Source: Actinomycetes bacterium (lineage in GTDB: Bacteria; Actinomycetota; Thermoleophilia; RBG-16-64-13). Taken from it: DNA of 64,000 bases. The notes under the pieces are model-generated. The model did no database searches, was not told the origin of the DNA, and saw nothing but the letters and a program-made list of their open reading frames with translations. Of the stretch, positions 39,327 through 59,401 are shown piece by piece. The stretch covers positions 7,307 through 71,306 of the forward strand of contig JAJFUK010000086.1 of assembly GCA_021372435.1 (NCBI GenBank), written 5' to 3'. Every line of letters begins with the position of its first letter. The stretch's first letter is position 1. Both the position numbers and the translations under genes were made by a program.

Positions 39327-39336
39327 CCGGGTCGCG

Positions 39337-41406
39337 ATGGTCGCGGAGCATCCTCTCACCCTCGGCACGGCGGGACACATCGATCACGGCAAGACCACTC
39401 TTGTCAAGGCCCTGACCGGACGCGACACCGACCGTCTTGAAGAAGAGAAGCGACGCGGCATCAGCATCGAGTTGGGCTTCGCCGAACTGGTGTTGCCGAG
39501 CGGGCGGCACATCAGCGTAGTGGACGTCCCCGGCCACGAGCGCTTCGTCAAGACCATGGTGGCCGGAGCCACGGGGATCGATCTGTTCCTGCTGGTGGTT
39601 GCCGCAGATGATGGCGTGATGCCCCAGACGCGCGAGCATCTGCGCATCATCGAACTCCTAGGGATCCCGGCGGGCGCGGTCGCGCTGACCAAGATCGATG
39701 TCGTCGACCAGGACTTCGTCGAATTGGCCGGTGCCGACGTCGAGGAGTTCTTGGCCACCACCAGGTATGTGGATGCGCCCATCGTGCCCGTGAGCGGGGT
39801 CACCGGGGAGGGGCTGCCTGCGCTGCTGTCCGTACTGGACGAACTGGGAGCCCGTGTGCCCCCTCGTGCGGCCTACCCTGCTACCCGCATGCCGGTGGAC
39901 CGGGTGTTCTCGCTGAGGGGGATCGGGACCGTGGTCACAGGGACCCTCTGGTCGGGTCGCATAGGCGCTGAAGATACGGTGGCCATTCTTCCTCCGCGCC
40001 ACGGCCGGGGCTCGAGTGCGCTTCGCGAGGTGCGGGTGCGCAGCGTCCAGGTGCACGACCGGGAAGTCGCCGAGGCGGTCGGGGGCCGGCGGGTCGCGCT
40101 GAACCTGACCGGAGTCGACCGGGACGAGGTAGTCCGGGGGCAGTGGGTCGTGAAAGACCCCGCCATCGAGCCTACGTATCTCGCCGATGTGCGTCTGACG
40201 CTCTTGACCGACGCCGGTGCTCCGCTCCCCCGGATCTCAAGAGTCCGGGTAGATCATGGGACCGCTGAGGTACTGGCCAAGGTGGTGCTGGCCGACCGGC
40301 AGATCCTCAACCCCGGGGGGTCGTGTTACGCTCAGGTCAGGTTCGATGAGCGGTGCCTGGTGTATCCGGGCGATCAGTTCATCGTCCGCTCGGTGACGCC
40401 CGTGACGACCATCGGCGGGGGCAGGGTGATCGATCCGGCGCCCCGCAAGCACAGCACCGGGCAGCATTGGCACGATCGGCTGGCCGTTCTGGAGGACGGG
40501 CGGCCGGAGGCGGTCGCCGCCCTCCTGCTCCAAGAATCGTTCCCGTCGGGCCCAGTCCGCGGGAGGTTTGAAACGAGTCCGTACCTGTGGCCGTTCACAC
40601 CGGAGGAGACCCGGGAGGCGGTCGTTGCCCTGCTGGCCGACGGCCGTGCCCTGGCGGTGGGAGCGGGCGTCGGGGGACCGGGGGGCGAGACTCGGTCTGG
40701 AGCAGTAGGCCCGAACGTCCGCCTGTTCCACGGTCCCTCTCTGCTCGCTCTTACCGACGCGGCGCTCACGGCGCTGCGTGCCAAGGCTGATGATGACCCG
40801 CTCGATCCCTATCTGACCCTGGGAGACCTACGGCGCGAGCTGGCCGGCGGGAGGGGATCCCCGGCTCTTGAAGTGGCTCTGGACCGCCTGCAGGATGCCG
40901 GCGAAGCCATCCGGTCCGAGCACGGGTACCGTTGGGCCGGAGCGGCAGTGGCCGCGCGGGGTGCACAGGCGGAGGTCGTTGAGCGTCTTCTGGAGCAGTT
41001 CAGCGCCGGCGCCGCCGGCCAGGGCCCGACCGGTAGAGGTGAAGTTCTCGGGAGCACGGCTGCCGTCGTGGCTTCAGGAGCCGCTGAGACGCCCAGTGTG
41101 ACCGCGGCGGCTGAAGCAGTAGGGCTCACCGTGGAGGCCGCTCAGAAGGTGATCGATGCATTGGTGCGACAAGGGCGGCTGGTCAGGGTGGGTGAAGACC
41201 TCTACTACCCGCCCGACCGGCTGGAGGCGCTCATCGGCCGCATCATCGTCGCGATGGAAGCTGCGGGGCAGGTCACGCTGGCCGAGGTCCGAGACCTCCT
41301 GGGGACATCGCGCCGATACTCGCAGGCCCTGCTGGAGCACATGGATTCCGAGGGCCTTACGCTGAGGGTGGGGGAGGCGCGGCGCCTGCGTCGCCGGCGC
41401 CGGTAG
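39337..41406 (+). CDS. selB: selenocysteine-specific translation elongation factor
   Basis: Start ATG 39337 lies 10 nt after the selA stop. Motifs: GTAGHIDHGKTTL, EEKRRGISIELGF, DVPGHERF, LTKID. The long C-terminal winged-helix region ends RRYSQALLEHMDSEGLTLRVG (SECIS-binding domain pattern). Confidence 0.92.
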   Translation: MVAEHPLTLGTAGHIDHGKTTLVKALTGRDTDRLEEEKRRGISIELGFAELVLPSGRHISVVDVPGHERFVKTMVAGATGIDLFLLVVAADDGVMPQTREHLRIIELLGIPAGAVALTKIDVVDQDFVELAGADVEEFLATTRYVDAPIVPVSGVTGEGLPALLSVLDELGARVPPRAAYPATRMPVDRVFSLRGIGTVVTGTLWSGRIGAEDTVAILPPRHGRGSSALREVRVRSVQVHDREVAEAVGGRRVALNLTGVDRDEVVRGQWVVKDPAIEPTYLADVRLTLLTDAGAPLPRISRVRVDHGTAEVLAKVVLADRQILNPGGSCYAQVRFDERCLVYPGDQFIVRSVTPVTTIGGGRVIDPAPRKHSTGQHWHDRLAVLEDGRPEAVAALLLQESFPSGPVRGRFETSPYLWPFTPEETREAVVALLADGRALAVGAGVGGPGGETRSGAVGPNVRLFHGPSLLALTDAALTALRAKADDDPLDPYLTLGDLRRELAGGRGSPALEVALDRLQDAGEAIRSEHGYRWAGAAVAARGAQAEVVERLLEQFSAGAAGQGPTGRGEVLGSTAAVVASGAAETPSVTAAAEAVGLTVEAAQKVIDALVRQGRLVRVGEDLYYPPDRLEALIGRIIVAMEAAGQVTLAEVRDLLGTSRRYSQALLEHMDSEGLTLRVGEARRLRRRRR

Positions 41407-41552: not shown

Positions 41553-41649
41553 GGAGCGGCTTTCGGTCTGGTGGCCGGCCCGGTCTTCAAAACCGGTGTT
41601 GGGGGGTAGGCCCCTCCAGGGTGGGTTCGATTCCCATGCCGCTCCGCCA
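41553..41649 (+). tRNA. selC: tRNA-Sec (anticodon UCA), CCA encoded
   Basis: GGAGCGGC...GCCGCTCC forms an 8-bp acceptor stem. The D-stem is 6 bp (UCGGUC/GGCCGG) with a 4-nt loop. The anticodon loop is CUUCAAA. A long variable arm (GGGGGG..CCCCUCC) and a 5-bp T-stem with UUCGAUU follow, then discriminator G plus CCA. This is the 8/5 bacterial tRNA-Sec geometry. Confidence 0.95.
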
Positions 41650-43063: not shown

Positions 43064-43993
43064 TCACGGTCGCGCGCGGATGATATCCACCGCCTCTGGC
43101 TTCACCGTGCCATTGTCCCGCGCCCGGCCCCTCGCCTCCCAGAGCACCAGCAGGCTCAGAGCCGTGACGACCATCACCATGCCCGCGATCTCCCAGGGGC
43201 TGAGCTCCTCGTTCAGTTGGAGCCATGAGGCCAACACGCCGACGACCGGAGTCCCGATCGTGCCGATACCGGCGACGTTCGCCGACAGCGCGCCCAGTAC
43301 GTACAGCCACAGGATGGAACCGAGGGCGGTTCCCAGCAGGATACTGTACGCCAGCGACCAGATGAAAGTGCCCGACCAGTGGATGCCGTCGCCTGGGATC
43401 AGGGCTCCCAACACCACCAGGGGGATCGAGCCGCAGAAGGTCGACCACGCCGTGAACGAGAGCAGATCGACCTCCTGTCGCATCCTGAGGACCTTCGCAA
43501 CGACCGCGCCTGCCGCGAAGCATACGGCCGCCGCCAGGGTCAAGAGGCTGCTGGACAGCCCACGCAGTCCCCAGGGCTCGATGATGAGCACGAGTCCCAC
43601 CAAACCGAGGCCCACGGACAGCCATTGACCTCCCCGTAGTCGCTCCCCCAGAAGCACCCAGGCGAGGATGAGCAGCCAGAACTGCCAGGTGTTGGCGAGC
43701 ATGGCGGTGTGTCCTGCCCCCCCTACCACCAGAGCGGCGGAGGTCAGGCCGGTGAAGGCCCCGCCCTGCATGATCCCCACAAAGGCCGTGAGCCTCAAAG
43801 CCTTGGGTCTGAGGGGACGGCCGGTGGCCGGGAGCAGGGCGAGTAGAAGGATACCCGCCGGAAGGCTGCGAAGGGCCGCGAACATGAAGGCGCTGCTCTC
43901 CATGATGCCCAGCTTGCTGGGTACCCAGGAATACCCCCAGATGAAGGGGAGGATCGCGAGCACCAAGACCGGGAGATAGCGAGTCGACCGCAC
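43064..43993 (-). CDS. EamA/DMT-family transporter
   Basis: 309 aa with 10 predicted TM helices and two EamA-like halves. Confidence 0.85.
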   Translation of the reverse strand: MRSTRYLPVLVLAILPFIWGYSWVPSKLGIMESSAFMFAALRSLPAGILLLALLPATGRPLRPKALRLTAFVGIMQGGAFTGLTSAALVVGGAGHTAMLANTWQFWLLILAWVLLGERLRGGQWLSVGLGLVGLVLIIEPWGLRGLSSSLLTLAAAVCFAAGAVVAKVLRMRQEVDLLSFTAWSTFCGSIPLVVLGALIPGDGIHWSGTFIWSLAYSILLGTALGSILWLYVLGALSANVAGIGTIGTPVVGVLASWLQLNEELSPWEIAGMVMVVTALSLLVLWEARGRARDNGTVKPEAVDIIRARP

Positions 43994-44035
43994 CGCGCCT
44001 CCACTTCGCCGTCAGGTCGGACAGCCCCATCCGGC

Positions 44036-44046
44036 CATTCTAACAA
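44036..44046 (-). promoter_or_regulatory. candidate extended -10 (TTGTTAGAATG) upstream of DMT transporter
   Basis: Identical 11-mer to 32712-32722, ~44 nt upstream of the start at 43993. Confidence 0.35.
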
Positions 44047-44287
44047 CTGGTTCCAGGATGAGACCGGGAGCGCGCAGCGCCTCCCCGGCGGCGTGATGCG
44101 TTCTCGGCCTGCAACGAGTTCCGGCTCCGGAGGCCTGCGGCCTACTCAGGAGACCCCTGTAATGGTAATGTGGCGCCAGGTGGACGAGGTTCGACCGAGG
44201 CCCGGCCGTGTAGGATGCGGCGGCGTCGCGGACGAGCGATGCCGCCGGGTTGATGAGGATCACGGATAGGCTGCAAGGGGGACGCGC

Positions 44288-45397
44288 GTGAAGATCAAGG
44301 GTGCTGTGCTGCGGGAGGTCGATAAGCCGTACTCCTTCGAAGAGCTGGAACTCGACTCTCCCCATGCCAACGAAGTACTCGTCAAGTGGTTGTACACGGG
44401 CTACTGCCATAGCGATCTGAGCAACCTCAAGGGCCGGACGATGATGGCTCTGCCTCTGGTCGCAGGTCACGAGTGCGCGGGGCTGGTCGAAGCGGTGGGC
44501 GAAGGGGTGACCCAGGTCAAGAAGGGTGACCACGTGGTCGGCACCTGGATGGTCCCCTGCGGACAGTGCCCGGAGTGTAGGCGCGGTCTGGGCAATATCT
44601 GCTCGGGCAACTTCGGGCCCTTCGTGTCCGGAACCATGCTCGATGGGACCACCCGGATCAAGGATGCCAACGGCGAGCCCGTCCTTCACGGCAACTTCGT
44701 GTCGGGTTTCTCCGACTACACCGTCGTCCCCGAGGGCGGGGTGGTGCCCATACGCAAGGACATGCCGCTCGATTGGGCCTGCCTCCTGAGCTGTTGCGTC
44801 CCCACCGGTTGGGGAACCGTCACCAAGGCGGCCAATGTGCAGCCGATGGACAGGGTGGCCATCTGGGGGCTGGGGGGCGTCGGCCAGAACGTGCTTCGGG
44901 CGGCCAAAGTGCGCGGGGCCCATCCTTTGATCGCCGTGGATCTCGAAGAATCCCGGCGGGAGAAGGCGCTGGCGCTCGGCGCAAGCCACTTCATCTGCAA
45001 TGCGAAGGAGGATCCGATCCCTCAGATCCTGGACCTGACCGGCGGAGGGTGTGACTATGTGTTCGAGGCCGCCGGACAGGTCGGTGCGACCGAGCAGGCC
45101 TGGTGGGCGCTGCGTCCGGCCGGCAAACTGATGATGGTCGGCATCATCTCCCAGCATGAGCCGGCGAGGCTGCCTCTTACCTTCTCGGTGTTTCACCAGA
45201 AGGGCGTGATAGGCACCCTTTATGGGTCGGTCGCGGTGCAGGACGAGATCCCTAAGCTGGTCGAGCAGGCGATGAACGGCGAGTTGATGATCGACACGAT
45301 CATAGAGGGGTACTTCAAGTTCGAGGAGCTCAACGATATCGCGGAGAAGATGGAGAACCGGCAATTGGGCGGGCGCTGGATCTGCAGGTTGGACTGA
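44288..45397 (+). CDS. Zn-dependent alcohol dehydrogenase (mycofactocin-associated nicotinoprotein-type candidate)
   Basis: GTG start. Motifs: GYCHSD, PLVAGHECAG, and structural-Zn cysteines CGQCPECRRGLGNIC. Lies immediately upstream of mftA on the same strand. Confidence 0.9.
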   Translation: MKIKGAVLREVDKPYSFEELELDSPHANEVLVKWLYTGYCHSDLSNLKGRTMMALPLVAGHECAGLVEAVGEGVTQVKKGDHVVGTWMVPCGQCPECRRGLGNICSGNFGPFVSGTMLDGTTRIKDANGEPVLHGNFVSGFSDYTVVPEGGVVPIRKDMPLDWACLLSCCVPTGWGTVTKAANVQPMDRVAIWGLGGVGQNVLRAAKVRGAHPLIAVDLEESRREKALALGASHFICNAKEDPIPQILDLTGGGCDYVFEAAGQVGATEQAWWALRPAGKLMMVGIISQHEPARLPLTFSVFHQKGVIGTLYGSVAVQDEIPKLVEQAMNGELMIDTIIEGYFKFEELNDIAEKMENRQLGGRWICRLD

Positions 45398-45492
45398 CGG
45401 ACACGGCTCCATCTTGGATCGGGTAGTCGGGGGGATCGATCACGGCGCTTTTCTTGACGGAGGTCTTGTTGGATACGACACATGGTGACGGC

Positions 45493-45594
45493 ATGGGTCC
45501 CGTCTCTGAGGCGATCGGTGCGGACGGGCCGGAGATCCTCGAGGAGATCGAGGTCGAGGACCTGGCTGTCGACGGTATCTGTGGAGTCTACTGA
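45493..45594 (+). CDS. mftA: mycofactocin precursor peptide
   Basis: 33-aa ORF, below the ORF-track cutoff: MGPVSEAIGADGPEILEEIEVEDLAVDGICGVY. The acidic leader and C-terminal DGICGVY match the conserved IDGMCGVY core. Lies directly upstream of mftB/mftC. An alternative in-frame TTG start at 45469 lies 5 nt after GGAGG. Confidence 0.85.
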   Translation: MGPVSEAIGADGPEILEEIEVEDLAVDGICGVY

Positions 45595-45865
45595 GACGGC
45601 CACGCATGCCGTCGAGGCGGCCGAGTACCTTGTGCCCCATTGGGTCCGGGTACGGCGGGAGGACTTCGGGATCCTCTTCTACGACGCCCGGTCGGCCAGG
45701 CTGACGTTCGTCGCTTCGGGCGACAGCCTGGAGCCGCCGCCGTTCACGGGTACCCGGCGTGCGCTCCGTGTCGCCACGCTTGACGGAAGCCGACAGGCCG
45801 CCGTGGCGCGACTGCTCCAGGACCTCGTCAGGAGAGGTCTGATCATTGCCGTCGAGCCTGACTAG
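45581..45865 (+). CDS. mftB: mycofactocin chaperone (PqqD-like RRE protein)
   Basis: HWVRVRREDFGILFYDARSARLTFV matches the MftB W.L...V..R.E.FG.L.Y pattern. There is no ATG. GTG 45581 (overlapping the mftA end) or GTG 45632 are possible starts. Confidence 0.78.
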   Translation: MESTETATHAVEAAEYLVPHWVRVRREDFGILFYDARSARLTFVASGDSLEPPPFTGTRRALRVATLDGSRQAAVARLLQDLVRRGLIIAVEPD

Positions 45866-46874
45866 CACCCGCCTGCGCGCGCCGGTCAACGTCACGTGGG
45901 AGATCACCGGGGCCTGCAACCTGCGGTGCCGCCATTGCCTGTCGGCCGGGCTACGGACGCGCGGCCACGGTGAACTCGACCTTGCTCACTGTCGAGAACT
46001 CATCGACGAACTGGCCCGTATGCAGGTCTTTCAAGTGAACTTCGGGGGAGGGGAGCCGTTCTTGCGGGCCGACTTCCTCGACATCCTGCGCTGTGTCCAT
46101 GAACGAGGCATCACGGCCTGCGTCAGCACCAACGGGACGGTGCTGGACGACGCCCTAGTGGACGAGCTCCTGGCGATGGCGCCCGTCTATCTGCAGGTGA
46201 GTCTGGACGGGGCCCGAGCCGAGACCAATGACACCATCCGGGGAGATGGGACCTTCGAGCGCATCCTTGCCGGGATAGAGCTACTTTCCAGGCGGGGCTA
46301 TCCCGATCTCAGCCTCAATATGGTAGTGACCCGCCTCAACGTTTCCGAGATCGGTGAGTTCGACCGGCTTGCCCGCCACTACGGGGCCAAGACGCGATTA
46401 TCCCGGTTCCGTCCTTCGGGGAGGGCGTGTGGCGTCTGGGAGGACTATCGGCTGGACAGGGAGCAGCTTCTGCAGCTGTCGGCGTTCCTGGGAGACCACC
46501 CGGAGATCCTCACCGGTGACTCGTTCTTTGCTCTTACGCCCGACGGCCGGCGCGCGCTGGGCCTGAACATGTGTGGGGCGGCCAAGATGACCTGCGCCGT
46601 GGCGCCGGACGGCGGGGTGTATCCCTGCGCGTTCTTGTGTGCGCCTGAGTTTCTCGCCGGCAATGTGACCTCCGCGCCCCTTGGGCAGATCTTCGGCTCC
46701 TCACCGGTATTCGAGAGGTTCCGGACGCTCGAGGTAGAGATCTGTCGCGCCTGCGATCGTTTTTCCCTCTGTCACGGGGGATGTCCGGCGATAGCGTGTT
46801 TTCTTACCGAGTCGATGGATCTCCCCGACCCGGAGTGCCTGCGCGCGGTGGTGTCCGGGAAGGAGGTGGCGTAG
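45846..46874 (+). CDS. mftC: mycofactocin radical-SAM maturase
   Basis: TTG start. WEITGACNLRCRHC (CxxxCxxC), GGGEPF, and SPASM cysteines (CGAAKMTCAVAPDGGVYPCAFL, CRACDRFSLCHGGCPA). Confidence 0.92.
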   Translation: MPSSLTSTRLRAPVNVTWEITGACNLRCRHCLSAGLRTRGHGELDLAHCRELIDELARMQVFQVNFGGGEPFLRADFLDILRCVHERGITACVSTNGTVLDDALVDELLAMAPVYLQVSLDGARAETNDTIRGDGTFERILAGIELLSRRGYPDLSLNMVVTRLNVSEIGEFDRLARHYGAKTRLSRFRPSGRACGVWEDYRLDREQLLQLSAFLGDHPEILTGDSFFALTPDGRRALGLNMCGAAKMTCAVAPDGGVYPCAFLCAPEFLAGNVTSAPLGQIFGSSPVFERFRTLEVEICRACDRFSLCHGGCPAIACFLTESMDLPDPECLRAVVSGKEVA

Positions 46875-46877
46875 ACC

Positions 46878-48827
46878 ATGCAGTTCCCTCATCTGTTCAG
46901 CCCTCTGCGGATAGGCCGGGTGACCGTGCCGAACCGGATCTCGTTCTCGGCGCATCTGACGAATCTGTCGAAGGACGGACTTCCGACCGAGCGGCTCGTG
47001 AGCTACTTAGCCGCCCGCGCCCGGGGCGGCGCGGGCCTGATCATCACAGAGGAGCAGTCGGTGCACCCTACCGACCGTGCCTACGAGCACCTCATGGAAG
47101 CCTTCCGGCCGGAGATCATCCCGGGGTACAAGCGGCTTACGCGGGCGATCCATGCCTATGACACACGCATCTTCGCCCAGATCAACCACAACGGGCAGCA
47201 GTGCAGCGGGGTTTTGTCGCGGCTGCCGGTGTGGGCCCCGTCGGCCGTTCCCGACGTCATGTACCGGGAGACTCCCAAAGTCATGGAGCTCGAGGACATC
47301 CGGGAGGTCGTCGCTCATTTCGCGCTGGGGGCGATCCATGTCCGCGAAGGCGGATTCGACGGGGTGGAGCTCCAATTCGGCCACAGCTCCCTGGCCCGGC
47401 AGTTCATGTCGCCGCTTACGAACTTCCGCACCGATGAGTACGGAGGCGGGTTCGACAACCGCATGCGGTTCCCTCTGGAGGTGATCGCGGCGGTCCGTCA
47501 AGCGGTGGGTAGCGACTTCACCGTGGGCGTGCGCCTCTGCGCCGACGAGATGATCCCCGGAGGGCTGACGCTTGAAGACGCCAAGCAGATCGCGCAGCGG
47601 TTGGAGGCGACCGGGGAGCTCGACTACTTCAATCTCACTCTCGCGACGTTCTACAACCTCTACCTGGTCGGGGGGCCGATGCACCTGCCCTTGGGCTACG
47701 CCGTCCCCCTGGCCGCAGGCGTCAAGCAGGTGACGGCTCTGCCGGTGTTCACCGCCGGACGCATCAACGACCCGGCTTTGGCCGAGCGGATATTGGCTGA
47801 TGGACAGGCCGACATGATCGGTGTGGTGCGGGGCCAGATCGCCGACCCCGACTTCTCGAGCAAGGCCCGGGAGGGCCGCACCGACGAGATCCGCTACTGC
47901 ATCGCCTGTAATCAGAACTGCTACGGGCGCGTGGGCCTGAATCACACGATAGGATGCGTCCAGAACCCGGCGGTGGGTCACGAGGACACCGAGGGTGAGT
48001 GCCACCTCCGACCGACTCTGCGTAAGAAGCGGGTCATGGTGGTGGGTGGAGGCCCGGCCGGCATGTGGGCGGCCAAGATAGCCTCTCTCCGCGGGCACGA
48101 CGTCACGTTGTACGAAAAGTCCCAGGACCTGGGCGGCCAGGTCCTGCTGGCGGCGAAAGGAGCCGGACGCGACGAGTTTGGAGCGATAGCACGCAACGAG
48201 CGGAACCAGCTGGCCCGTCTTCGTGTGCCCGTGGAACTCGGCGTCGAGGTCACGCCGGAGTTCGTGCTCGACCGCGCCCCAGACGCGGTGATCGTGGCCA
48301 CCGGCTCGCGCCCCAAATCCTGTCCGGTGGCCGGAGCCGATGGGCCCAACGTCTTCAACGTATGGCAGGTGCTCGGCGGTGAGGCGCAACTCGGCGAGCG
48401 GGTGCTCCTCATCGACTACGACGGCCACCACCAGGCGACCGCCACAGCCGAGTTCATCGCCGACCTGGGGAAGACGGTGCACGTGGTCACCTCCGCGCTC
48501 TTCGTCGGTTCCGACCTGGGTCCATCGCAGGATCTCTACCTGTCACGCCAGAGGCTGCTCCAGAAAGGCGTCACCCTCACCGCCGATTTCGCGGTCATGG
48601 AGATCAAAGGCCTGGACGTCCATGGCTTCGACGTGTACTCGAACGTGTGGAGTGTCATCTCGGGCTACGACAGCATCGTGACCGCCATGGGCAATGATGC
48701 CTGCGACGGGCTCTATTTCGCGCTCAAAGGCAGGGTACCGGAGATTGTGCGGGTGGGAGACTGTGTCGCGCCCAGGAAGGTCGACATGGCCATCCTCGAA
48801 GGCTACAGGGCCGGGAAGCGCGTGTGA
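46878..48827 (+). CDS. FadH/OYE-family FMN + 4Fe-4S + FAD/NAD(P) oxidoreductase (2,4-dienoyl-CoA-reductase/TMADH architecture)
   Basis: 649 aa. OYE-like TIM barrel (RIGRVTVPNRI, INHNGQQ, GFDGVELQFGH), the CIACNQNCYGRV...C cluster motif, then VVGGGPAGMWAA Rossmann. A FadH/OYE family has been described as mycofactocin-associated (from memory, not checked). Confidence 0.88.
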   Translation: MQFPHLFSPLRIGRVTVPNRISFSAHLTNLSKDGLPTERLVSYLAARARGGAGLIITEEQSVHPTDRAYEHLMEAFRPEIIPGYKRLTRAIHAYDTRIFAQINHNGQQCSGVLSRLPVWAPSAVPDVMYRETPKVMELEDIREVVAHFALGAIHVREGGFDGVELQFGHSSLARQFMSPLTNFRTDEYGGGFDNRMRFPLEVIAAVRQAVGSDFTVGVRLCADEMIPGGLTLEDAKQIAQRLEATGELDYFNLTLATFYNLYLVGGPMHLPLGYAVPLAAGVKQVTALPVFTAGRINDPALAERILADGQADMIGVVRGQIADPDFSSKAREGRTDEIRYCIACNQNCYGRVGLNHTIGCVQNPAVGHEDTEGECHLRPTLRKKRVMVVGGGPAGMWAAKIASLRGHDVTLYEKSQDLGGQVLLAAKGAGRDEFGAIARNERNQLARLRVPVELGVEVTPEFVLDRAPDAVIVATGSRPKSCPVAGADGPNVFNVWQVLGGEAQLGERVLLIDYDGHHQATATAEFIADLGKTVHVVTSALFVGSDLGPSQDLYLSRQRLLQKGVTLTADFAVMEIKGLDVHGFDVYSNVWSVISGYDSIVTAMGNDACDGLYFALKGRVPEIVRVGDCVAPRKVDMAILEGYRAGKRV

Positions 48828-49909
48828 ACCGGGCCGCCGACAGGGAACAGAAGCGCGGCGTTGCCGCGGGCGGCGAGGCCGGCGACGGGGTGGAGACGGC
48901 GCCGGCCTCCGGAGGCCTCCTTGTACTTGTGGAACCGCCGGACGCCGAAGACGGGCCGGGCCGCTTTGTTCTTGCGGCCGAGGGGACTAGGTTGGCACGC
49001 TTACTCGAGGGGCCGCTCCACCTTGTCACGTGGCCCGAGGGCGCGGATCTCGATCTGGAGGCGCTCGCCACGGCGGCGGCCGGCCTGGCGGAGCGCACGC
49101 GGCCGGCGGCCGTGCTTTTGGCCGACACCGACACCGGCCGTCAGTTGGCGCCGATGATCGCGTGCCGGCTGGGTTCTGGGTGCGTGACTGCGTGCAGCGA
49201 CGTGCTGGTGCGGGATCCGGCTGCGCCGGCGGGCCGGGCAGGGCGGCCGGTCTGCATGACGCCCGGAAGGGAGAGGACCCTCGTGTTCGTAAAACCCGTC
49301 TACGGCGGCGGGCTGGAGCAGGAGATCGAACCTCTGCACGACACCATACCGGTCGTCGCCCTTGATCTTACCGGGATGGATGCCCCGGAGACCGGCGCGG
49401 CTGCCCTTCCGGTTGCTGGGGTCCTGCAGGTGGACGTTACCCCCACTCCTCGGGTTCCTCGGGTCCGGCGGCTCGAGATGATCCGACCAGACCCGCGTTC
49501 CGTGGACCTGGTCCACGCGCGACGGATCGTGACGGCGGGGGCGGGCAGCGCCGGGGATGCGCTTCTGGCCGCCGTGGGTGAACTTGCCGAACTTCTCGAG
49601 GGCTCGGTGGGGGCTACTCGACCGGTGGTGGACGATGGCCGCCTTCCCAAAGAACGGCTGATCGGACAGACGGGCCGTACCGTGGCCCCGGACCTCTATG
49701 TCGCTCTCGGCCTGTCCGGATCGCCTCACCACCTCGCGGGAGTGAAACGGGCGGAGCGCATCCTGGCCATCAACAAGGACGGAAGCGCTCCCATCTTCCA
49801 CTTCTCCGATGTGGGCTACGTAGCCGATCTGGAGATGGTGCTTCCTGCTTTGGTGAAGAAGATCAAGGAGTGGCGGGATGCCTCCGGCGGCCCCGACGAC
49901 TCTGGGTAG
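48824..49909 (+). CDS. fixB: electron transfer flavoprotein alpha subunit (FixB-like)
   Basis: GTGA overlap with the upstream stop. The C-terminal FAD domain reads GATRPVVDDGRLPKERLIGQTGRTVAPDLYVALGLSGSPHHLAG...ILAINKD. Confidence 0.88.
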   Translation: MNRAADREQKRGVAAGGEAGDGVETAPASGGLLVLVEPPDAEDGPGRFVLAAEGTRLARLLEGPLHLVTWPEGADLDLEALATAAAGLAERTRPAAVLLADTDTGRQLAPMIACRLGSGCVTACSDVLVRDPAAPAGRAGRPVCMTPGRERTLVFVKPVYGGGLEQEIEPLHDTIPVVALDLTGMDAPETGAAALPVAGVLQVDVTPTPRVPRVRRLEMIRPDPRSVDLVHARRIVTAGAGSAGDALLAAVGELAELLEGSVGATRPVVDDGRLPKERLIGQTGRTVAPDLYVALGLSGSPHHLAGVKRAERILAINKDGSAPIFHFSDVGYVADLEMVLPALVKKIKEWRDASGGPDDSG

Positions 49910-51242
49910 CGACCGCGGCGCCTTCGACGCCATCGTGGTAGGGGCGGGTCCGGCGGGCACGAGCGCGGCGCTTGCGCTTGCCCAGAAGGGGTTCAGGGTC
50001 CTCCTGCTGGAACGGGGCGACTACCCGGGGGCCAAGAACATGTTCGGCGGGATGATGGCTTACTGTCCTGCGCCGGAAGAGCTGGTTCCCGGCTTCTGGG
50101 AGCGGGCCCCGTGGGAGCGGGCGGTGACCAAGCGTGTACTGTCGGTCGTGGGCGGGGGCTCCAGCACGTCCCTGGTCTTCCAAGCCGCCTCTGACTCCGG
50201 CCGGCCGTCGGCGGGCGGTGGTTCCACCTCCGATCAAACGCTGACCGGGTTCACGCTCTTTCGTCCCCAGTTCGACCGCTGGTACGCGGAGCAGGCCGTC
50301 GCCCAGGGAGTGACCCTGCTCACCGGCTGTCGCGTGGAGGGACTCCTGCTGCATGACGGAGCGGTCTGGGGTGTGCGTATCGCCGGTGCTGAAGACGTAG
50401 TCGAAGCCCCTGTGGTCGTGGCCTGCGACGGGACGCTCTCGTTGGTGGCGCAGCAGGCCGGTCTGCACACAGGAGTGAGGGCAGAGCATGTGGCCCTAGG
50501 GGTTCGGGCCCTCTACGCGCTCAGCGAAGAAGGGATCGACGAACGGTTCGCACTCGACGGCCGGGAGGGCGCCACCTACGAATTCCTTGGCTGCACCGAG
50601 GGGATCCGGGGCGGGAGCTTCATGTATACGCAGACCGAGACGGTCTCCGTAGGTATGGTGCTCCACCTTGACTCGCTCAAAGCGCGCGGGGTGCCTCCCT
50701 ATGGACTCTTGGAGCGCTTCGTTGCATCCCCGCCGGCGGCCTCACTGCTCAGGGCAGCGCGTTTGGTCGAGTACTCGGCCCACCTCCTCCCGGAGGCGGG
50801 CACGCGCATGGTGCCTCGTCTGTCCGCAGCCGGACTGCTTGTCGCCGGAGACGCGGCCGGTCTCTGCTATACGAACGGCCTCATCCAGGAAGGGATGAAC
50901 CTGGCCATGACGTCCGGTCTGCTGGCCGGACGCGTGGCCGCCGAAGCCCTAGCGGAGGGCGATCTCAGCGCGCGTCGTCTGGCCCGGTACGCGGGTGAAT
51001 TGGAGCGGAGCTTTGTCCTCAAGGACATGAAGACCTTCGACCGGGCCGTCGACTTCATGCGCGAAGACCGGCTGTTCACCGTGTATCCGCGGGTCATCAG
51101 CGCGCTGATGGAAGACCTCTACCGTTCCGACGGCACGCCGAAGGAAAAGATAGGGCCGCTTGCCCGCCGCGCTCTCAAGGGCGAGTTGCCGGTGCGTGCC
51201 TTGATCGCCGATCTCTTCCGAGGAGGGAGGGGCTACCTGTGA
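49878..51242 (+). CDS. fixC: FAD-dependent ETF:quinone-type oxidoreductase (FixC-like)
   Basis: FDAIVVGAGPAGTSAALALAQKG, GAKNMFGG, and C-terminal AGDAAG. Confidence 0.88.
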   Translation: MPPAAPTTLGSDRGAFDAIVVGAGPAGTSAALALAQKGFRVLLLERGDYPGAKNMFGGMMAYCPAPEELVPGFWERAPWERAVTKRVLSVVGGGSSTSLVFQAASDSGRPSAGGGSTSDQTLTGFTLFRPQFDRWYAEQAVAQGVTLLTGCRVEGLLLHDGAVWGVRIAGAEDVVEAPVVVACDGTLSLVAQQAGLHTGVRAEHVALGVRALYALSEEGIDERFALDGREGATYEFLGCTEGIRGGSFMYTQTETVSVGMVLHLDSLKARGVPPYGLLERFVASPPAASLLRAARLVEYSAHLLPEAGTRMVPRLSAAGLLVAGDAAGLCYTNGLIQEGMNLAMTSGLLAGRVAAEALAEGDLSARRLARYAGELERSFVLKDMKTFDRAVDFMREDRLFTVYPRVISALMEDLYRSDGTPKEKIGPLARRALKGELPVRALIADLFRGGRGYL

Positions 51243-51514
51243 TAGTGGACGACCTGTTCGATCTGGTGAGCTACCGGATCCATCCCGAGGCGCACATCGT
51301 CGTCGATGCGGAGGGGTGTAAGGACTGCGCGCATCGGGCCTGTACCTTCTCCTGCCCGGCCCGCTGCTATACGTGGAGCGAGGAGAGAGCCCGGGTGGAG
51401 TTCGCCTATGAGGCCTGTCTCGAATGCGGTACCTGCCTGCTCGTGTGCGACCGGAAGGCCGTCGACTGGCACTATCCTCCCGGGGGATACGGTGTGCGCT
51501 TCCGGCTCACATAG
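51239..51514 (+). CDS. fixX: ferredoxin-like protein FixX
   Basis: 91 aa. Motifs: CKDCAHRACTFSCPARCY, CLECGTCLLVC, and a trailing HYPPGGYGV. Confidence 0.85.
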   Translation: MIVDDLFDLVSYRIHPEAHIVVDAEGCKDCAHRACTFSCPARCYTWSEERARVEFAYEACLECGTCLLVCDRKAVDWHYPPGGYGVRFRLT

Positions 51515-51523
51515 GAGCGCCCG

Positions 51524-52534
51524 ATGAGGATCCTGGTCCTTCTGGGAATCGGGGCAGACGTCCGCGTCTCTGTGGAGCGCGATCCACGCAGCGGGCGCGT
51601 ACGCGCCGAACGGCTCGTGCGCGAGATCGATCCGGACTGCGGTCGCGCACTGGATCTGGCTCTGCGCCTGAAGTGCGCCCACCCGGGAACGGAGCTGACG
51701 GCCCTGCACTTTGGGCCCCCGAGTGGGGAGTCCCGGCTTCGGCACGCTCTGGCCCAGGGTGTCGACCGGGCGGTGCGCATATGGGATGAAGAAGTCACCG
51801 GGGCGCGGGCGGCCGGCAAGGCAGTCATCCTGGCCGCGGCCGCCGAAGCGGCCGGCTTTGACCTGATCTTAGCCGGAGCGACCGGTGTCGTCGAAGCCGG
51901 CGGTCAGCTCGGCGTGTTGGTGGCGGCGCACCTGGGAGTCCCCTGCGTGACCCAGGTGGTCGATATGGCCGCTGCAGAGGGCCCGGATGCCTCGGCCGGG
52001 CGGCAAAGCCTGGAGATGATGCGCGGCCTGGATCGGGGCTTCCGCGAGCGGGTGCTGGTCTCGTTGCCGGTCGTCGCGACGGTGTCGTGTCTCGGGGCAG
52101 TCCCGGTGACCACGGCGAAGACGCTCGACACGACCCACGCGGCGGTGACCGCCCGTGCGCTTCTGGCGGTCCAAGATCAGGAGATCGCCACGTGGGACCT
52201 GGCCGATCTAGGCGTGCCGCTCGATGGGGTGCGACGTGCCGATGGGTCTCTCGTCTATGGGCGGCCGCGTCCCCGGCGTCCCCGGCTGCGCCCCCTTGCT
52301 GCTCCCGACCCGGCGCTTCCCGCGTTCGACCGTATCCTCAAGCTGATCGAGGGGTCCGTCAAACGGCGGGAAGGCCGCGTCGTCCGGCGCTCCGCGGACG
52401 CGATCGTCGACGAGATATTCAGGCTTCTCCATGATGAAGGCTGGCTGGATCACCTTCGTCCCGGCGCGCAGCGTGTCCGTCTTGCGGCCCCAGGCGACGA
52501 CCGGGAGACTCCTGAGCCCGGCGACGGCCGATGA
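51524..52534 (+). CDS. fixA: electron transfer flavoprotein beta subunit (FixA-like) with C-terminal extension
   Basis: MRILVLLG..., IDPDCGRALDLALRLK, LRHALAQGVDRAVRIWD, DLILAGATGV..GQLGVLVAAHLGVP. About 75 extra C-terminal residues include a Pro/Arg linker. Confidence 0.8.
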   Translation: MRILVLLGIGADVRVSVERDPRSGRVRAERLVREIDPDCGRALDLALRLKCAHPGTELTALHFGPPSGESRLRHALAQGVDRAVRIWDEEVTGARAAGKAVILAAAAEAAGFDLILAGATGVVEAGGQLGVLVAAHLGVPCVTQVVDMAAAEGPDASAGRQSLEMMRGLDRGFRERVLVSLPVVATVSCLGAVPVTTAKTLDTTHAAVTARALLAVQDQEIATWDLADLGVPLDGVRRADGSLVYGRPRPRRPRLRPLAAPDPALPAFDRILKLIEGSVKRREGRVVRRSADAIVDEIFRLLHDEGWLDHLRPGAQRVRLAAPGDDRETPEPGDGR

Positions 52535-53991
52535 TCCCTGTAGCCTATTGGCTGCGCGAATCGGTACGGATCGAGCCCGCCGGCGCCGGTCGCCGGCGCG
52601 TAGTGTCCGAAGCGCCCCTCACAGTCTTGACGATCAATCATGCCGCAGCGGAGCTCCTGGAAGTGACGCGCCGAGGCGCCTCGGTCGCCGACCTGGCCGC
52701 TGCGTTCGACGCGGACCAGGAACGGATCTTTCTGCTGTGCGAGCGCTTCCGTCGCCGCGGGATTCTCCAGGTCCGCCGGGCGCCGGTCGACGCCGGCTTT
52801 TCACCCACGGTGACCGTGATCGTTCCCACACAGGACCGCGTGGACGATCTGGACGATTGTCTCCAAGCTCTCAGCCGCCTGGACCATCCCCGCGACCGGC
52901 TCGAGGTGATCGTGGTGGACGACGGCTCGACGGATCCCTCGGCAGTCGCCGACGTCGTTGCTCGTCACGACGCCCGCCTTCTGACCAACGAGTGCAATCA
53001 CGGAGCTCCGTACTCCCGCAACCGGGCGGCCCGGGTGGCGGCGGGCGAGATACTGGCCTTCATCGACAGCGACTGCGTGCCCGGCCGTGGGTGGCTTGGG
53101 GAACTCATCCCCTACTTCTGCTGGGACAAGGTCGGAGCGGTGGGTGGCCGCACCGTCAACTATTACACCGGGTCGCGACTCGACCGGTACGAGGAGGTCT
53201 CGTCTCCGCTGGATATGGGCAAGGACCTGATCATCCAAGCGCGCGGGCAGAGCACCTTCTACGTGCCCACGTGCAACCTGCTCGTCCGCCGTTCCACGTA
53301 CGAGGATCTGGGGGGCCTACGAGAGGATCTGCTCGTGGGCGAAGATGTGGACTTCTGCTGGCGTCTGCGGGCGAACGGCCTCTATCTTGTGTATGCTCCG
53401 GAGGGTCTGGTGCGGCACAAGCACCGGGACCGGCTGGGCGCGATGCTACGGCGGCGGGCAGAGTACGGCACTTCCGAGGCGACCCTCTACTCGCTCCATC
53501 GCGACAAGCGCAAACGCTTTCCGGTATCCCCCGCTCCGGCGGCCACTGTGGGCCTTTTCTCTACGGCACTGCTTACACGTAAGGTGCAGTTGCTCCTGCC
53601 CTGCCTGCTCCCTCCGTTGGCGGACTGCGTCCGCCGCGGCCTGAAACTTCGCAGGGAGGCGATCGGAGCCCCGGCTCGAGCGGTTTGTGTTTCGGTGGCG
53701 CGCGGTCATCTTTCCATGGTCTACTTCGTCTTCTTTCACCTCGTTCGATACTACTTGGCGCCTCTGGCTGCCGCCGGCCTGTTTGTTCCTGGGATCCGGC
53801 TACTGGCCGCCACTGCCGTCCTTTACTCGGGAGGGGTCGATTACGTCACTCGAAGACCTCGGATGACCTACCCTGTGTACCTCGCGTACTACGTGGCAGA
53901 GCACGCCGCCTATCAGGCGGGCGTCATGGCGGGCTGCGTGCGGTCAAGGACCTTTCGCTGCTACCTCCTTGGGCGCAGCGGGACGAGATAG
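52531..53991 (+). CDS. mftF: mycofactocin-system glycosyltransferase candidate (GT2 with N-terminal extra domain and C-terminal TM region)
   Basis: 486 aa. GT2 core (VTVIVPTQDR, VIVVDDGSTD, FIDSDCVP, VGEDVDFCWR) preceded by a ~95-aa domain and followed by hydrophobic helices, the size and layout of MftF. Last gene of the mft operon. The assignment is context-based. Confidence 0.72.
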   Translation: MIPVAYWLRESVRIEPAGAGRRRVVSEAPLTVLTINHAAAELLEVTRRGASVADLAAAFDADQERIFLLCERFRRRGILQVRRAPVDAGFSPTVTVIVPTQDRVDDLDDCLQALSRLDHPRDRLEVIVVDDGSTDPSAVADVVARHDARLLTNECNHGAPYSRNRAARVAAGEILAFIDSDCVPGRGWLGELIPYFCWDKVGAVGGRTVNYYTGSRLDRYEEVSSPLDMGKDLIIQARGQSTFYVPTCNLLVRRSTYEDLGGLREDLLVGEDVDFCWRLRANGLYLVYAPEGLVRHKHRDRLGAMLRRRAEYGTSEATLYSLHRDKRKRFPVSPAPAATVGLFSTALLTRKVQLLLPCLLPPLADCVRRGLKLRREAIGAPARAVCVSVARGHLSMVYFVFFHLVRYYLAPLAAAGLFVPGIRLLAATAVLYSGGVDYVTRRPRMTYPVYLAYYVAEHAAYQAGVMAGCVRSRTFRCYLLGRSGTR

Positions 53992-54171
53992 ACCGCCCCG
54001 GCCGGCCGGAAACGAGTTCTCGGCCTGCACATGAAGGGCGCCGCCCGTATTATGCCGTCGCGCGTGGTGCAGTCTGTGGGCCGGAGGCGTGCGCGATCGT
54101 GACGTACGTCGTATCGGTGATAAGGGCGATGACGCTCGGAGTCTGGCGCCCACCGGTCGAGCCGCCTGCCT

Positions 54172-54639
54172 CTATTGCTCGAGCGAGGCTATCAGGTCCA
54201 GTATTTCGCCGTCAGGCGGTATGTCGCTCATGTCATGCCCGTAGTGGACGAAGCGGGCGATGCCGGACTTGTCCACCAGCACCTGCGCCGGCATCCGGCC
54301 GAGCTTGAACAGCTTGATCTCCTGTCCGTAGAGCTTGAGGACGCTGTGTTTGGGATCGGGAAGACCGACGAAGGGCAGATCGTTGTTCTGCCAATAGGAA
54401 GCAAAGGCTTCAGCGTCCTCGGGACCAACGACCACGATCATCGTGCCGGATTCCTGGAACTTCTCGTAGTCTTGGCGCAACTGCGCCATATGCGCCCGGC
54501 AGAACGGTCACATGAAGCCGCGATTGAAGACCAGCAGCACATTCGACCGACCATGCTGGTCGGACAGTCTGAACGTCGCTCCGGTGTAGTCGGTCAACTC
54601 GAAATCGGGAGCCGGAGCCGTGAGATTGACTTTGGGCAC
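54172..54639 (-). CDS. peroxiredoxin-like (AhpC/TSA-redoxin) selenoprotein, Sec44 encoded by in-frame TGA
   Basis: The ORF track splits this gene into 54508..54921 and 54172..54489, which are in the same frame. GTG start 54639 lies 5 nt after AGGAGGAG. The product reads VPKVNLTAPAPDFELTDYTGATFRLSDQHGRSNVLLVFNRGFM-U(TGA 54510-54508)-PFCRAHMAQLRQDYEKF.... The TGA sits exactly at the first Cys of the family's CPFC/CxxC redox motif. selA/selB/selC lie in the same window. Confidence 0.8.
54473..54488 (-). promoter_or_regulatory. candidate bacterial SECIS hairpin
   Basis: mRNA UGGCGC-AGUU-GCGCCA: a perfect 6-bp stem with a 4-nt loop, starting 19 nt after the UGA. This is within the spacing range used by SelB-dependent SECIS elements. 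Confidence 0.45.
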
Positions 54640-54992
54640 TGTTCTCCTCCTGGTTCTTGGGGCTGATGAGCCGGAAAAGCATCTCCGGCCGAGATCAGCA
54701 GTCCTTATAGTCCTCGACGGGCATCCCGCCGGCGGGCCGCACCGCACAGGTCCAAGGGTGGCTCCCTGTGCTCGACCTGCTCCTGCCGCCGCCGGCATGC
54801 CTCCTGCCGTCTTGGTGAAGATCATTTCCCCAATACCGTAGCTACGTAACAAGTGACACGTGGCGTACGTGGTGTATGGCCCTACGAAGTCACGACGCCC
54901 TCTGGACCCGAGGCGTCCCAAGGACTAGTCTAGAAGTGCGGGAGTCCGGCGCCGACCGTCGGCGGGCCGGGAGCGAAGTAAGGAGGTCGCAG

Positions 54993-55214
54993 ATGTCCGG
55001 TGGCGTGTACAAGGTGATCGAGCTGGTTGGAACAAGCACCGAGTCCTGGGAGGCGGCTGCAAAGTCGGCCATCGAAGCGGCGACGGCGACCCTGCAGGAC
55101 ATCCGCGTAGCCGAGGTCGTCAAGATGGACGTGCGGCTCGATCAGAACAAGATCGTCGAATACCGCACGCGGCTTACGGTCTCGTTCAAGTATCACAAGG
55201 AGCTGAGCGACTAG
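54993..55214 (+). CDS. dodecin-family flavin-binding protein
   Basis: ATG 54993 follows AAGGAGG. MSGGVYKVIELVGTSTESWEAAAKSAIEAATATLQDIRVAEVVKMDVRLD...YRTRLTVSFKY matches the dodecin pattern. Confidence 0.85.
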   Translation: MSGGVYKVIELVGTSTESWEAAAKSAIEAATATLQDIRVAEVVKMDVRLDQNKIVEYRTRLTVSFKYHKELSD

Positions 55215-55264
55215 CCCGACAAGACCACCCGCCGGTCACTGTAGCTTCACAGCGCAGGGTGTGG

Positions 55265-55699
55265 TCAGGCCGCAGTGACCGGACGGACCTTAGCACCGTC
55301 GTCGCGTTCCTCTGCCGTGGTCGTGTGCGCGCCGTGTTCGTGCGCCGCGGCCGGTCGCAGCGAGAAAGTCGACGGTTTCTGTGCCTGCTGCTTCCACTCG
55401 TCGAGCACCGCTTGATTCGGGAGAGGGAGTGGCTGCATCCCGACGATCTGACAGGCGCGTTCATAGATGCAGTCTGACTCGTGCGTGCACTCGCCCGCCG
55501 AGATCTCGAACGGGGCGTGACAGTAGATGCAGCACAAGGTATGAAGATCCCACCATGGCGTGCGGACCAAACGCTCAAGCACCCAACGCATGCGCCGCCA
55601 GTCATAGCAGACCGTCTCCACATCCGCCGAAAGCCTGTCGACTTCGCGCGTGCTCGGAACACGATTCTCGAACACCGTCGCCTCTCCTTGGGAATCCAT
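55265..55699 (-). CDS. hypothetical Cys/His/Trp-rich protein
   Basis: 144 aa, LHTLCCIYCHAPFEISAGECTHESDCIYERAC. Amino-acid composition is unlike the Arg/Pro-rich shadow ORFs. I recognise no family. Confidence 0.45.
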   Translation of the reverse strand: MDSQGEATVFENRVPSTREVDRLSADVETVCYDWRRMRWVLERLVRTPWWDLHTLCCIYCHAPFEISAGECTHESDCIYERACQIVGMQPLPLPNQAVLDEWKQQAQKPSTFSLRPAAAHEHGAHTTTAEERDDGAKVRPVTAA

Positions 55700-59316: not shown

Positions 59317-59401
59317 GGGGCGCTCCTTGCGACGCACACTCACCGGCTTGGATGTGGGACGGACTTGCGGCCGATCTCCCCTGGTGGCATCATGCCGCAT
59401 C

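Follow-up and report, generated by a model that had tools for sequence, protein, structure and literature searches.

What has been published on the mycofactocin pathway is based almost wholly on mycobacteria, in which MftD is indispensable for the redox-active keto-amide (PMC7491314) and MftG feeds the electrons back to respiration (PMC11778925). The region 44288-53991 (+) of the window (the whole 64-kb stretch of Thermoleophilia DNA analysed here) raises the question of how such a cofactor is made and recycled where a five-gene module takes the place held in mycobacterial clusters by MftD and MftE, with MftG nearby. The module codes for a FadH/OYE-family flavoenzyme (OYE-2), EtfA, FixC, FixX and EtfB, the Etf proteins being the subunits of an electron transfer flavoprotein (ETF). 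In our study the region is read as a complete and self-contained ETF-type mycofactocin operon, in which OYE-2 would oxidise the mycofactocin core and the electrons would pass through ETF and FixCX to quinone, in place of MftD and/or MftG; we hold the case for this reading to be evenly balanced.

ETF-type clusters were found in Actinomycetota, Bacillota, Desulfobacterota-like lineages and haloarchaea, with neither MftD nor MftG and with the fixed OYE/ETF/FixCX module instead. The module is a concrete candidate for the missing MftD and MftG functions and hints at how strict anaerobes could make and recycle mycofactocin. The association is on record only as family names in NCBI annotation models. 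The window is a further member of these widespread, database-catalogued and experimentally unexplored clusters, and belongs to an MftE-less subtype with a variant MftA. The value of the locus is a defined, testable hypothesis with more than 40 loci for comparison, and not a new kind of system.

Gene organization of the operon

The region 44288-53991 (+) is a real ten-gene mycofactocin operon, its operon status being based on spacing and synteny. For comparison, 35 related mycofactocin loci were obtained by a scan of species-representative genomes with the window MftC. The ten open reading frames (ORFs) are all on the + strand and are of coding-type composition, with a third-position GC (GC3) of 0.77-0.84. 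Their identities were assigned using the curated bit-score cut-offs of NCBIfam, along with Pfam and PDB sequence matches, and the genes stand in the following order:

44288..45397 (+), zinc-dependent alcohol dehydrogenase (Zn-ADH); Pfam ADH_N and ADH_zinc_N
45493..45594 (+), mftA, variant-type mycofactocin precursor of 33 residues, ...ILEEIEVEDLAVDGICGVY; NF040489, 41 bits (cut-off 30)
45632..45865 (+), mftB, RRE-type chaperone for MftA; TIGR03967, 40 bits (cut-off 33)
45846..46874 (+), mftC, radical SAM/SPASM maturase; TIGR03962, 340 bits (cut-off 265)
46878..48827 (+), OYE-2, mycofactocin-system FadH/OYE family oxidoreductase 2; TIGR03997, 935 bits (cut-off 793), full length; Pfam Oxidored_FMN and Pyr_redox_2
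48824..49909 (+), etfA, ETF alpha (FixB-like), electron-transfer FAD motif intact; Pfam ETF and ETF_alpha; NF038209 mft_etfA, 127 bits (cut-off 240)
49878..51242 (+), fixC, FixC-like ETF:quinone oxidoreductase flavoprotein; NF007542 FixC, 300 bits (cut-off 610)
51239..51514 (+), fixX, FixX-like 4Fe-4S ferredoxin subunit; NF011993 FixX, 46 bits (cut-off 166); Pfam Fer4 families and Fer4_ETF_QO
51524..52534 (+), etfB, atypical ETF beta (FixA-like) of 336 residues with a Pro/Arg-rich linker and a C-terminal helix; Pfam ETF; TIGR04503 mft_etfB, 65 bits (cut-off 200)
52531..53991 (+), mftF, GT2 glycosyltransferase decorating the mycofactocin core; TIGR03965, 362 bits (cut-off 280); Pfam Glycos_transf_2

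Five of the ten proteins (MftA, MftB, MftC, MftF and OYE-2) score above the curated NCBIfam cut-offs, and EtfA, FixC, FixX and EtfB are all below theirs despite having the right Pfam domains. The gene identities given in a sequence-only reading of this stretch are borne out by the NCBIfam scores; its OYE (46878..48827) and MftF (52531..53991) products, when tested against the mycofactocin-associated models, both came out above the cut-off. The junctions between neighbouring genes, all on the + strand, are as follows:

Zn-ADH/mftA (+): ADH stop 45397, mftA ATG 45493, 95-nt gap
mftA/mftB (+): mftA stop 45594, mftB GTG 45632, 37-nt gap
mftB/mftC (+): mftB stop 45865, mftC TTG 45846, 20-nt overlap
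mftC/OYE-2 (+): mftC stop 46874, OYE ATG 46878, 3-nt gap
OYE-2/etfA (+): 48824-48827, GTGA overlap (4 nt)
etfA/fixC (+): etfA stop 49909, fixC ATG 49878, 32-nt overlap
fixC/fixX (+): 51239-51242, GTGA overlap
fixX/etfB (+): fixX stop 51514, etfB ATG 51524, 9-nt gap
etfB/mftF (+): 52531-52534, ATGA overlap

At seven of the eight junctions between mftA and mftF, the genes overlap or lie at most 9 nt apart. The sequence-only reading had described all of them as overlaps or gaps of at most 10 nt, which holds at these seven and fails at mftA-mftB (37 nt); the stop and start codons it gave around mftC and OYE-2, the overlaps it gave at 48824-48827, 51239-51242 and 52531-52534, and the Zn-ADH it placed ahead of the unit were all recovered in the sequence. 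The mftA-mftB spacing of about 35-37 nt was found again in homologous loci, and MftB is covered from residue 1 by tblastn orthologues in the related loci. The ATG at 45606 does not lie in the reading frame of the MftB homology; if translation started instead at the in-frame GTG at 45581, mftB would overlap mftA by 14 nt. Promoter and terminator scans of 43500-55500 gave signals not above the shuffled expectation and are neutral on a single transcript.

Mycofactocin core genes and the adjoining alcohol dehydrogenase

The C-terminal sequence of MftA, ...EEIEVEDLAVDGICGVY, ends in DGICGVY, and the precursor also reaches about 26 bits against TIGR03969 (cut-off 25). Of the 35 related loci, 32 encode a precursor with a C-terminus of the form ...E[IV]E[VI]E[DE]L[ATSL][VI]DGICGVY; in L019, L020 and L029 the DNA searched has no such ORF. 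Precursors of the DGICGVY type pass NF040489, whereas canonical ones ending in ...IDGMCGVY fail it. The core features set out by Haft 2011 (PMC3023750) were all found, namely a ...CGVY precursor next to the maturase, MftB, MftC and MftF. In comparison with the canonical Mycobacterium/actinomycete system (mftR, mftA-F, mftG and mftM), the window shares the Gly-Val-Tyr C-terminus of MftA, MftB, MftC, MftF and a nicotinoprotein-like Zn-ADH alongside, but its precursor has GICGVY with an EEIEVEDL leader in place of the canonical IDGMCGVY. The window MftC is 71-81% identical to that of Thermoleophilia, Gaiellales and other Actinomycetota metagenome-assembled genomes (MAGs), about 60% to that of Syntrophorhabdaceae and 'delta' MAGs, and about 43% to canonical MftC. 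Family scores and synteny show MftA, in which the core Val-Tyr is kept, MftB, MftC and MftF to be the set that makes and glycosylates a mycofactocin-like core.

The top NCBIfam match of the Zn-ADH is TIGR03989 (NDMA-dependent ADH), at 306 bits, which is under the cut-off of 440. Its gene lies directly 5' of mftA in 27 of the 35 related loci, and from this conserved position the enzyme is likely to be the substrate dehydrogenase that uses mycofactocin.

Conservation of the arrangement

The order ADH-A-B-C-OYE2-EtfA-FixC-FixX-EtfB-F is kept in 24 of the 35 related loci, from Thermoleophilia, Gaiellales and other Actinomycetota MAGs as well as Syntrophorhabdaceae and 'delta' MAGs. A comparison of mftC neighbourhoods across genomes, which the sequence-only reading had suggested, placed OYE/ETF genes beside mftC in 33 of the 35 loci, and in the remaining two the contig (4.2 and 1.6 kb) breaks off shortly after mftF. 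With the same order in 24 loci and OYE/ETF genes flanking mftC in 33, the arrangement is far beyond chance. The taxa among the 35 loci are Actinomycetota, Syntrophorhabdaceae and other 'delta' MAGs, Bacillota and Desulfobacterales, and a permuted order (OYE-OYE-EtfA-FixC-FixX-EtfB-MftB-MftC-MftF) was seen in Pelotomaculum, Ca. Formimonas warabiya, a Peptococcaceae MAG and a Desulfobacterales MAG. The conservation is limited to the ten genes, the flanks being variable. More than 100 further close relatives of MftC are present in metagenome protein collections.

Some of the related loci have features of their own. A second radical SAM/SPASM gene, 21-24% identical to MftC and absent from the window, lies just before mftF in deltaproteobacterial/Desulfobacterales clusters (L014:16613-17479, L016:7606-8577 and L026:11146-12096), with upstream copies in L015 and L030. 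The Thermoleophilia MAG MFD02159.bin.2.70 has two copies of the ten-gene cluster on different contigs (L011 and L032), the second of which is more diverged and frameshifted, possibly due to assembly quality or decay. Just 3' of mftF in the window, at 54876-55214 (+), is a gene for dodecin (PF07311), a flavin storage protein. Four related loci (L001, L007, L028 and L031) also have a dodecin gene downstream of their cluster, which may be connected with the flavin demand of the operon.

The OYE-2 flavoenzyme

By its sequence, OYE-2 would consist of an FMN TIM barrel, a 4Fe-4S cluster and an FAD/ADP domain, the last having no Rossmann motif for NAD(P)H. Its PDB relatives are 2-naphthoyl-CoA reductase (NCR; 6qkg, 2e-94), E. 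coli FadH (1ps9, 9e-80), histamine dehydrogenase (3k30, 1e-61) and trimethylamine dehydrogenase (TMADH; 1djn, 8e-61), with end-to-end alignment to NCR and histamine dehydrogenase and alignment over most of the length to FadH and TMADH. The CxxCxxxCx11C cluster motif and the first GxGxxG (FAD/ADP site) are retained. LIDYDGHHQAT stands in place of GCGGIG, the NADPH-binding GxGxxG of FadH, which is likewise replaced in TMADH, histamine dehydrogenase and NCR; Streptomyces OYE-2 is also without the FadH-type NADPH motif. OYE-2 thus shares with NCR and FadH the FMN/4Fe-4S/FAD-domain layout and the cluster motif, but the residue aligned with FadH Tyr166, a Tyr in NCR as well, is Ser in OYE-2. This Tyr, conserved in YqjM too, we take to be the proton donor of the ene-reductases. 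A role as a classical ene-reductase, to which the top matches NCR and FadH would point, was considered and found unlikely in view of this Ser and of the absent NADPH motif.

The likeness to the TMADH/histamine dehydrogenase group with ETF (Methylophilus methylotrophus W3A1; 1djn, 1o94 and 3k30) covers the same three-domain FMN/4Fe-4S/ADP-type family (E about 1e-61), the third domain without an NAD(P)H motif, the CxxCxxxCx11C motif and an ETF encoded alongside, and the His of 'GHS' in OYE-2 aligns with the conserved His172 of TMADH. The differences from TMADH are a Leu where the latter has the flavin-linking Cys30 (6-S-cysteinyl FMN), and the presence of a putative FixCX ETF:quinone oxidoreductase in the same operon. 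With this pattern of motifs, OYE-2 looks like an enzyme that depends on a protein redox partner and not on NAD(P)H; the ETF encoded directly downstream is translationally coupled to it by a 4-nt overlap.

ETF and FixCX subunits

EtfA matches 5ol2_A (3e-34) and 7koe_B (5e-30) in the PDB, its best matches being bifurcating-type ETFs, and it is the positional orthologue of the 'mycofactocin-associated ETF alpha' of PGAP. EtfB matches CarD (6fah_B, 9e-17) and the W3A1 ETF-beta (1o94_C, 8e-12). FixC is closest to that of the Thermotoga maritima EtfABCX complex (7koe_C, 1e-62) and reaches 26.8 bits against Pfam ETFQO_UQ-bd, slightly under the cut-off. The FixX-like protein has FixX-like Cys motifs and is 66-88% identical across the loci of the window type and 37-47% in the loci of permuted order. 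FixC and FixX, which score below the curated cut-offs, are by homology a putative ETF:quinone oxidoreductase pair. In case of the Streptomyces counterparts, the window ETF subunits are positional orthologues in the same order, at 28-40% identity over partial lengths.

The DGDT[AG]Q zipper of ETF beta is a mark of the bifurcating FAD site (PMC8958531). All five bifurcating PDB ETF-beta chains that matched at E<=1e-7 have DGDT[AG]Q (four were aligned), whereas EtfB reads GATGVVEAGGQ at the site of the zipper G[RK]QA[IV]DGDT[AG]Q. A bifurcating ETF, suggested by the best PDB matches, was therefore rejected, and the ETF is treated as a simple one-flavin carrier. The W3A1 ETF-beta also departs from the standard motif, like EtfB. 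In comparison with FixABCX/EtfABCX (T. maritima 7KOE; Fix proteins of Azotobacter and Rhodopseudomonas), all four subunit types are represented by homology, but the window EtfB has VEAGGQ in place of DGDT[AG]Q, and the gene order is B-C-X-A, led by the OYE enzyme. The 'full FixABCX set' of the sequence-only reading stands by homology and gene order, but a bifurcating complex is not to be assumed with the EtfB zipper absent.

Mycofactocin-linked EtfB proteins have a common Pro/Arg-rich PRPxRPRP stretch followed by an amphipathic C-terminal helix (window residues about 235-336; C-terminus of L063), and this extension reaches well past the 252-296-residue length of the matched solved ETF-beta chains. 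It is possibly a docking element for OYE-2.

Canonical partners

Annotated MftD, MftE, MftG, MftR and MftM proteins from RefSeq plasmid records were used as tblastn queries, and hidden Markov models (HMMs) built from 4 MftD, 6 MftE, 2 MftG, 3 MftR and 1 MftM sequences were run against six-frame ORFs. The searches covered the 64-kb window, flanks of 10 kb in the 35 related loci, or single plasmids. In the window and the 35 related loci, MftD (PF01070/TIGR03966) gave no tblastn match (E<=1e-3) and no HMM match (E<1), and neither MftD nor MftE was found within 10 kb in any of the 35 loci. The MftE HMM was without a match at E<=1 in the window, and its best match in the related loci was at E 0.26; MftM had no match in the window and a sole one, at E 0.35, in a related locus. 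In the window, the MftG HMM gives no more than a marginal match, to the FAD Rossmann fold of FixC (E about 2e-3), and the MftR HMM matches only a MerR-TetR fusion at 59279-60337, 5 kb downstream (E 3e-5). Among the 20 flanking genes scanned with Pfam are those for SelB, a MarR-like protein, an SDR, dodecin, transporters of the EamA and MFS families, sugar-nucleotide enzymes and a NuoF/NuoG-like pair, and none codes for a peptidase or an FMN dehydrogenase. The five canonical partners are hence not found in the 64 kb, and the earlier statement that nothing in the window resembles MftD, MftE, MftG or MftR is upheld by both kinds of search.

The earlier studies give a background to these absences. 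In M. smegmatis, deletion of mftD abolishes mycofactocins, whereas deletion of mftE still yields them via an unknown peptidase (PMC7491314); therefore a loss of MftE is tolerable, but an MftD-like activity is required. MftD, MftE and MftR are absent from some mycofactocin species and co-clustered when present (Haft 2011, PMC3023750). About 25% of the genomes with mftC are without MftG, and its substitute was left as an open question by Graca et al. (PMC11778925), whose MftG-less table includes S. yangpuensis, T. roseum, Geotalea uraniireducens, Desulfofarcimen and Desulfonema. From this published list, S. yangpuensis carries the OYE/ETF module, and T. roseum is without it nearby.

The same module on plasmids and in existing annotation

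The layout was called non-canonical in the sequence-only reading, and as such it is real, but it is not unrecorded: NCBIfam models have already been named for these associations (TIGR03996 and TIGR03997 for FadH/OYE 1 and 2, NF038209 for ETF alpha, TIGR04503 for ETF beta and NF040489 for variant-type MftA). On plasmids of at least five Streptomyces strains, the PGAP annotation gives the order mftA-B-C/OYE1/OYE2/ETF-alpha/FAD oxidoreductase/4Fe-4S protein/ETF-beta/(SDR)/mftF/mftE. The OYE/EtfA/FixC/FixX/EtfB module also lies beside mftE-A-B2-C-F on plasmids of Haloterrigena and Halolamina, with an SDR gene inserted ahead of etfB in Halolamina. The clusters of Streptomyces sp. NBC_00334 (NZ_CP108009), S. 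yangpuensis (NZ_CP102515) and Haloterrigena turkmenica pHTUR01 have the same module and internal order as the window and no MftD or MftG, the module lying between mftC and mftF in Streptomyces as in the window. These clusters keep MftE and canonical MftA, and several add a mycofactocin-coupled or generic SDR. The window differs in having no MftE, no SDR in the operon, a leading Zn-ADH, diverged ETF subunits and one OYE (type 2), whereas the Streptomyces clusters have OYE 1 and 2 and the Bacillota clusters likewise have two OYE paralogues.

Twelve PLSDB plasmids carry mftC. MftD is present without the module in four of these (Tsukamurella, M. chubuense, Streptomyces NBC_00080 and T. roseum); from the other eight, seven were inspected, and each carries the module while lacking MftD on the plasmid. 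In the 11 plasmids inspected out of the 12, as in the 35 genome loci, MftD and the OYE-ETF-FixCX module thus never occur together. Every cluster seen with MftD has it no more than about 3 kb from mftC, including two clusters from Solirubrobacteraceae (class Thermoleophilia). In a rough neighbour-joining tree of MftC, the Streptomyces OYE/ETF clusters fall within the canonical actinobacterial clade, beside the D/E/G cluster of Streptomyces NBC_00080, and the clade of the window and the haloarchaea form separate deep branches in this approximate tree. Within one Streptomyces MftC clade, NBC_00080 has D/E/G whereas the others have OYE/ETF/E; therefore the alternatives were exchanged between closely related maturases.

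The Streptomyces ETF-type clusters (L063, L066, L068 and L071) lie within secondary-metabolite regions with type I polyketide synthases and SARP regulation, which hints that the cofactor serves a biosynthetic pathway there and not alcohol catabolism. The cluster on the T. roseum megaplasmid (L061) has MftD, with no MftE, MftG or OYE/ETF module nearby, and its mftF is followed by genes for a CDGSH iron-sulfur protein and an FAD-dependent oxidoreductase; it may be a third cluster type with another recycling route.

Proposed mechanism

In the mechanism proposed here, the Zn-ADH, with tightly bound nicotinamide as in the nicotinoprotein model of Haft, would reduce mycofactocin, and OYE-2 would oxidise the mycofactocin core. 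The most economical role for OYE-2 would be the C-N oxidation of AHDP to premycofactocin (the step of MftD) and/or the re-oxidation of mycofactocinol (the step of MftG). The electrons would then move one by one from the 4Fe-4S cluster of OYE-2 to the non-bifurcating ETF, to FixCX and to menaquinone, and release of the core from the peptide would be left to a peptidase encoded elsewhere. Histamine dehydrogenase carries out the oxidative deamination of a primary amine. As the family of OYE-2 includes this deaminating enzyme and TMADH, which donates electrons to ETF, OYE-2 is by analogy the most plausible catalyst of the conversion of AHDP to premycofactocin in clusters without MftD. The potentials of PMFT/PMFTH2 (-255 mV) and menaquinone (-74 mV), as quoted in PMC11778925, make the electron direction towards menaquinone downhill and therefore feasible.

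The two steps are favoured by different observations. The full ETF chain is expensive and argues for at least a recycling (MftG-like) role, whereas the MftD-like role is favoured because the anticorrelation with MftD is perfect and because T. roseum has MftD without MftG or the module nearby.

Several points weigh against the proposed role of OYE-2. The sequence of OYE-2 lies nearer to two reductases, NCR and FadH, than to amine dehydrogenases, and the Cys that binds FMN covalently in TMADH is missing. A four-gene electron chain would be lavish for a low-flux biosynthetic step, which favours the MftG-like over the MftD-like role. T. roseum, with MftD and neither MftG nor the module nearby, makes the anticorrelation with MftG imperfect, and that with MftD may be historical. 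MftD and MftE could also lie elsewhere in these genomes, the view being of 64 kb, 10-kb flanks and single plasmids. In addition, a literature search returned no paper pairing mycofactocin with an electron transfer flavoprotein (a mention in a 2019 review is possible). For mycofactocin with etfA, FixC, OYE or dienoyl-CoA reductase it gave one incidental mention only, and for mycofactocin with Thermoleophilia, Syntrophorhabdus, Formimonas or phylogenetic distribution nothing was found.

Alternative explanations

The sequence-only reading had left two ways open, namely that MftD and MftE are encoded elsewhere or that the cofactor is matured or used differently; this is still the right framing, and that interpretation is graded as supported. 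In the most far-reaching reading, OYE-2 with its private ETF/FixCX would be a non-homologous replacement for both MftD and MftG, with the ETF/quinone chain as acceptor and the variant precursor trimmed by a housekeeping peptidase, which would make it a second maturation and recycling route in several anaerobe-affiliated lineages and many soil Thermoleophilia; we put this forward tentatively, as possible but on the doubtful side. The first way, in which maturation is canonical with MftD and MftE elsewhere and OYE-2/ETF/FixCX is only the regeneration system (an MftG analogue) delivering electrons from mycofactocinol to the quinone pool, is rather unlikely in our judgement. A dedicated ETF with its ETF:quinone oxidoreductase would fit a high-flux catabolism from the adjoining ADH, the search for MftD and MftE was confined to 64 kb of the source genome and 10-kb flanks elsewhere, and carriers of the module are among the MftG-less genomes for which Graca et al. 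flagged the missing substitute. This way is opposed by the closeness of MftD to mftC (about 3 kb or less) wherever it was seen, by the co-clustering of D, E and R when present (with absence from some species) in Haft 2011, by the lack of any co-occurrence of MftD and module in the 11 inspected plasmids and 35 genome loci, and by the swap of D/G for OYE/ETF inside a single Streptomyces MftC clade.

A different end product, with the Val-Tyr core not deaminated to the keto-amide or processed otherwise and OYE-2 acting as a new tailoring step, is improbable. The distinct and tightly conserved variant precursor (ILEEIEVEDL[AT]VDGICGVY), which has its own NCBIfam model and co-occurs with the loss of cluster-encoded MftE, would suit it, as would the second radical SAM/SPASM gene of some relatives, the Ser at the FadH Tyr166 position and the atypical ETF; yet the core Gly-Val-Tyr is kept, the full-length MftB, MftC and MftF pass the equivalog models of the canonical pathway, and the module is joined with canonical MftA and MftE in the Streptomyces and haloarchaeal clusters. 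It is very improbable that OYE/ETF/FixCX is an unrelated catabolic unit placed between mftC and mftF, such as a reductase for enoates or dienoyl-CoA served by its own electron chain. Though 2-naphthoyl-CoA reductase and 2,4-dienoyl-CoA reductase are the nearest solved relatives of OYE-2, the insertion with overlapping start and stop codons is kept across bacterial phyla and the module stands beside mft genes on haloarchaeal plasmids; moreover TIGR03997 is a curated equivalog defined by mycofactocin association, and the Ser substitution and the missing NAD(P)H site of OYE-2 do not fit such a reductase.

Other features of the window

About 3 kb upstream of the operon, the gene for SelB, a selenocysteine elongation factor (39226-41406, +), is directly followed by tRNA-Sec (41553-41645, +), the latter assigned with Rfam RF01852 at 78 bits and the ARAGORN anticodon tca. 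The Rfam matches in the window are tRNA-Sec and tRNA-Ala only. At 54172-54489 (-) there is a 105-residue AhpC/TSA-like ORF that covers only profile positions 45-122, probably either an N-terminally truncated peroxiredoxin or one with a mis-set start. The stretch 59279-63760 (+) begins with an unusual fusion regulator of MerR-HTH and TetR_N (352 residues) and continues with two genes, one for a 690-residue protein with Fer2_4, NADH-G 4Fe-4S, Fer4 and Pyr_redox_2 domains and the other for a NuoF-like protein (SLBB and NADH_4Fe-4S), whose domains suggest a soluble NuoF/NuoG/GltD-type oxidoreductase.

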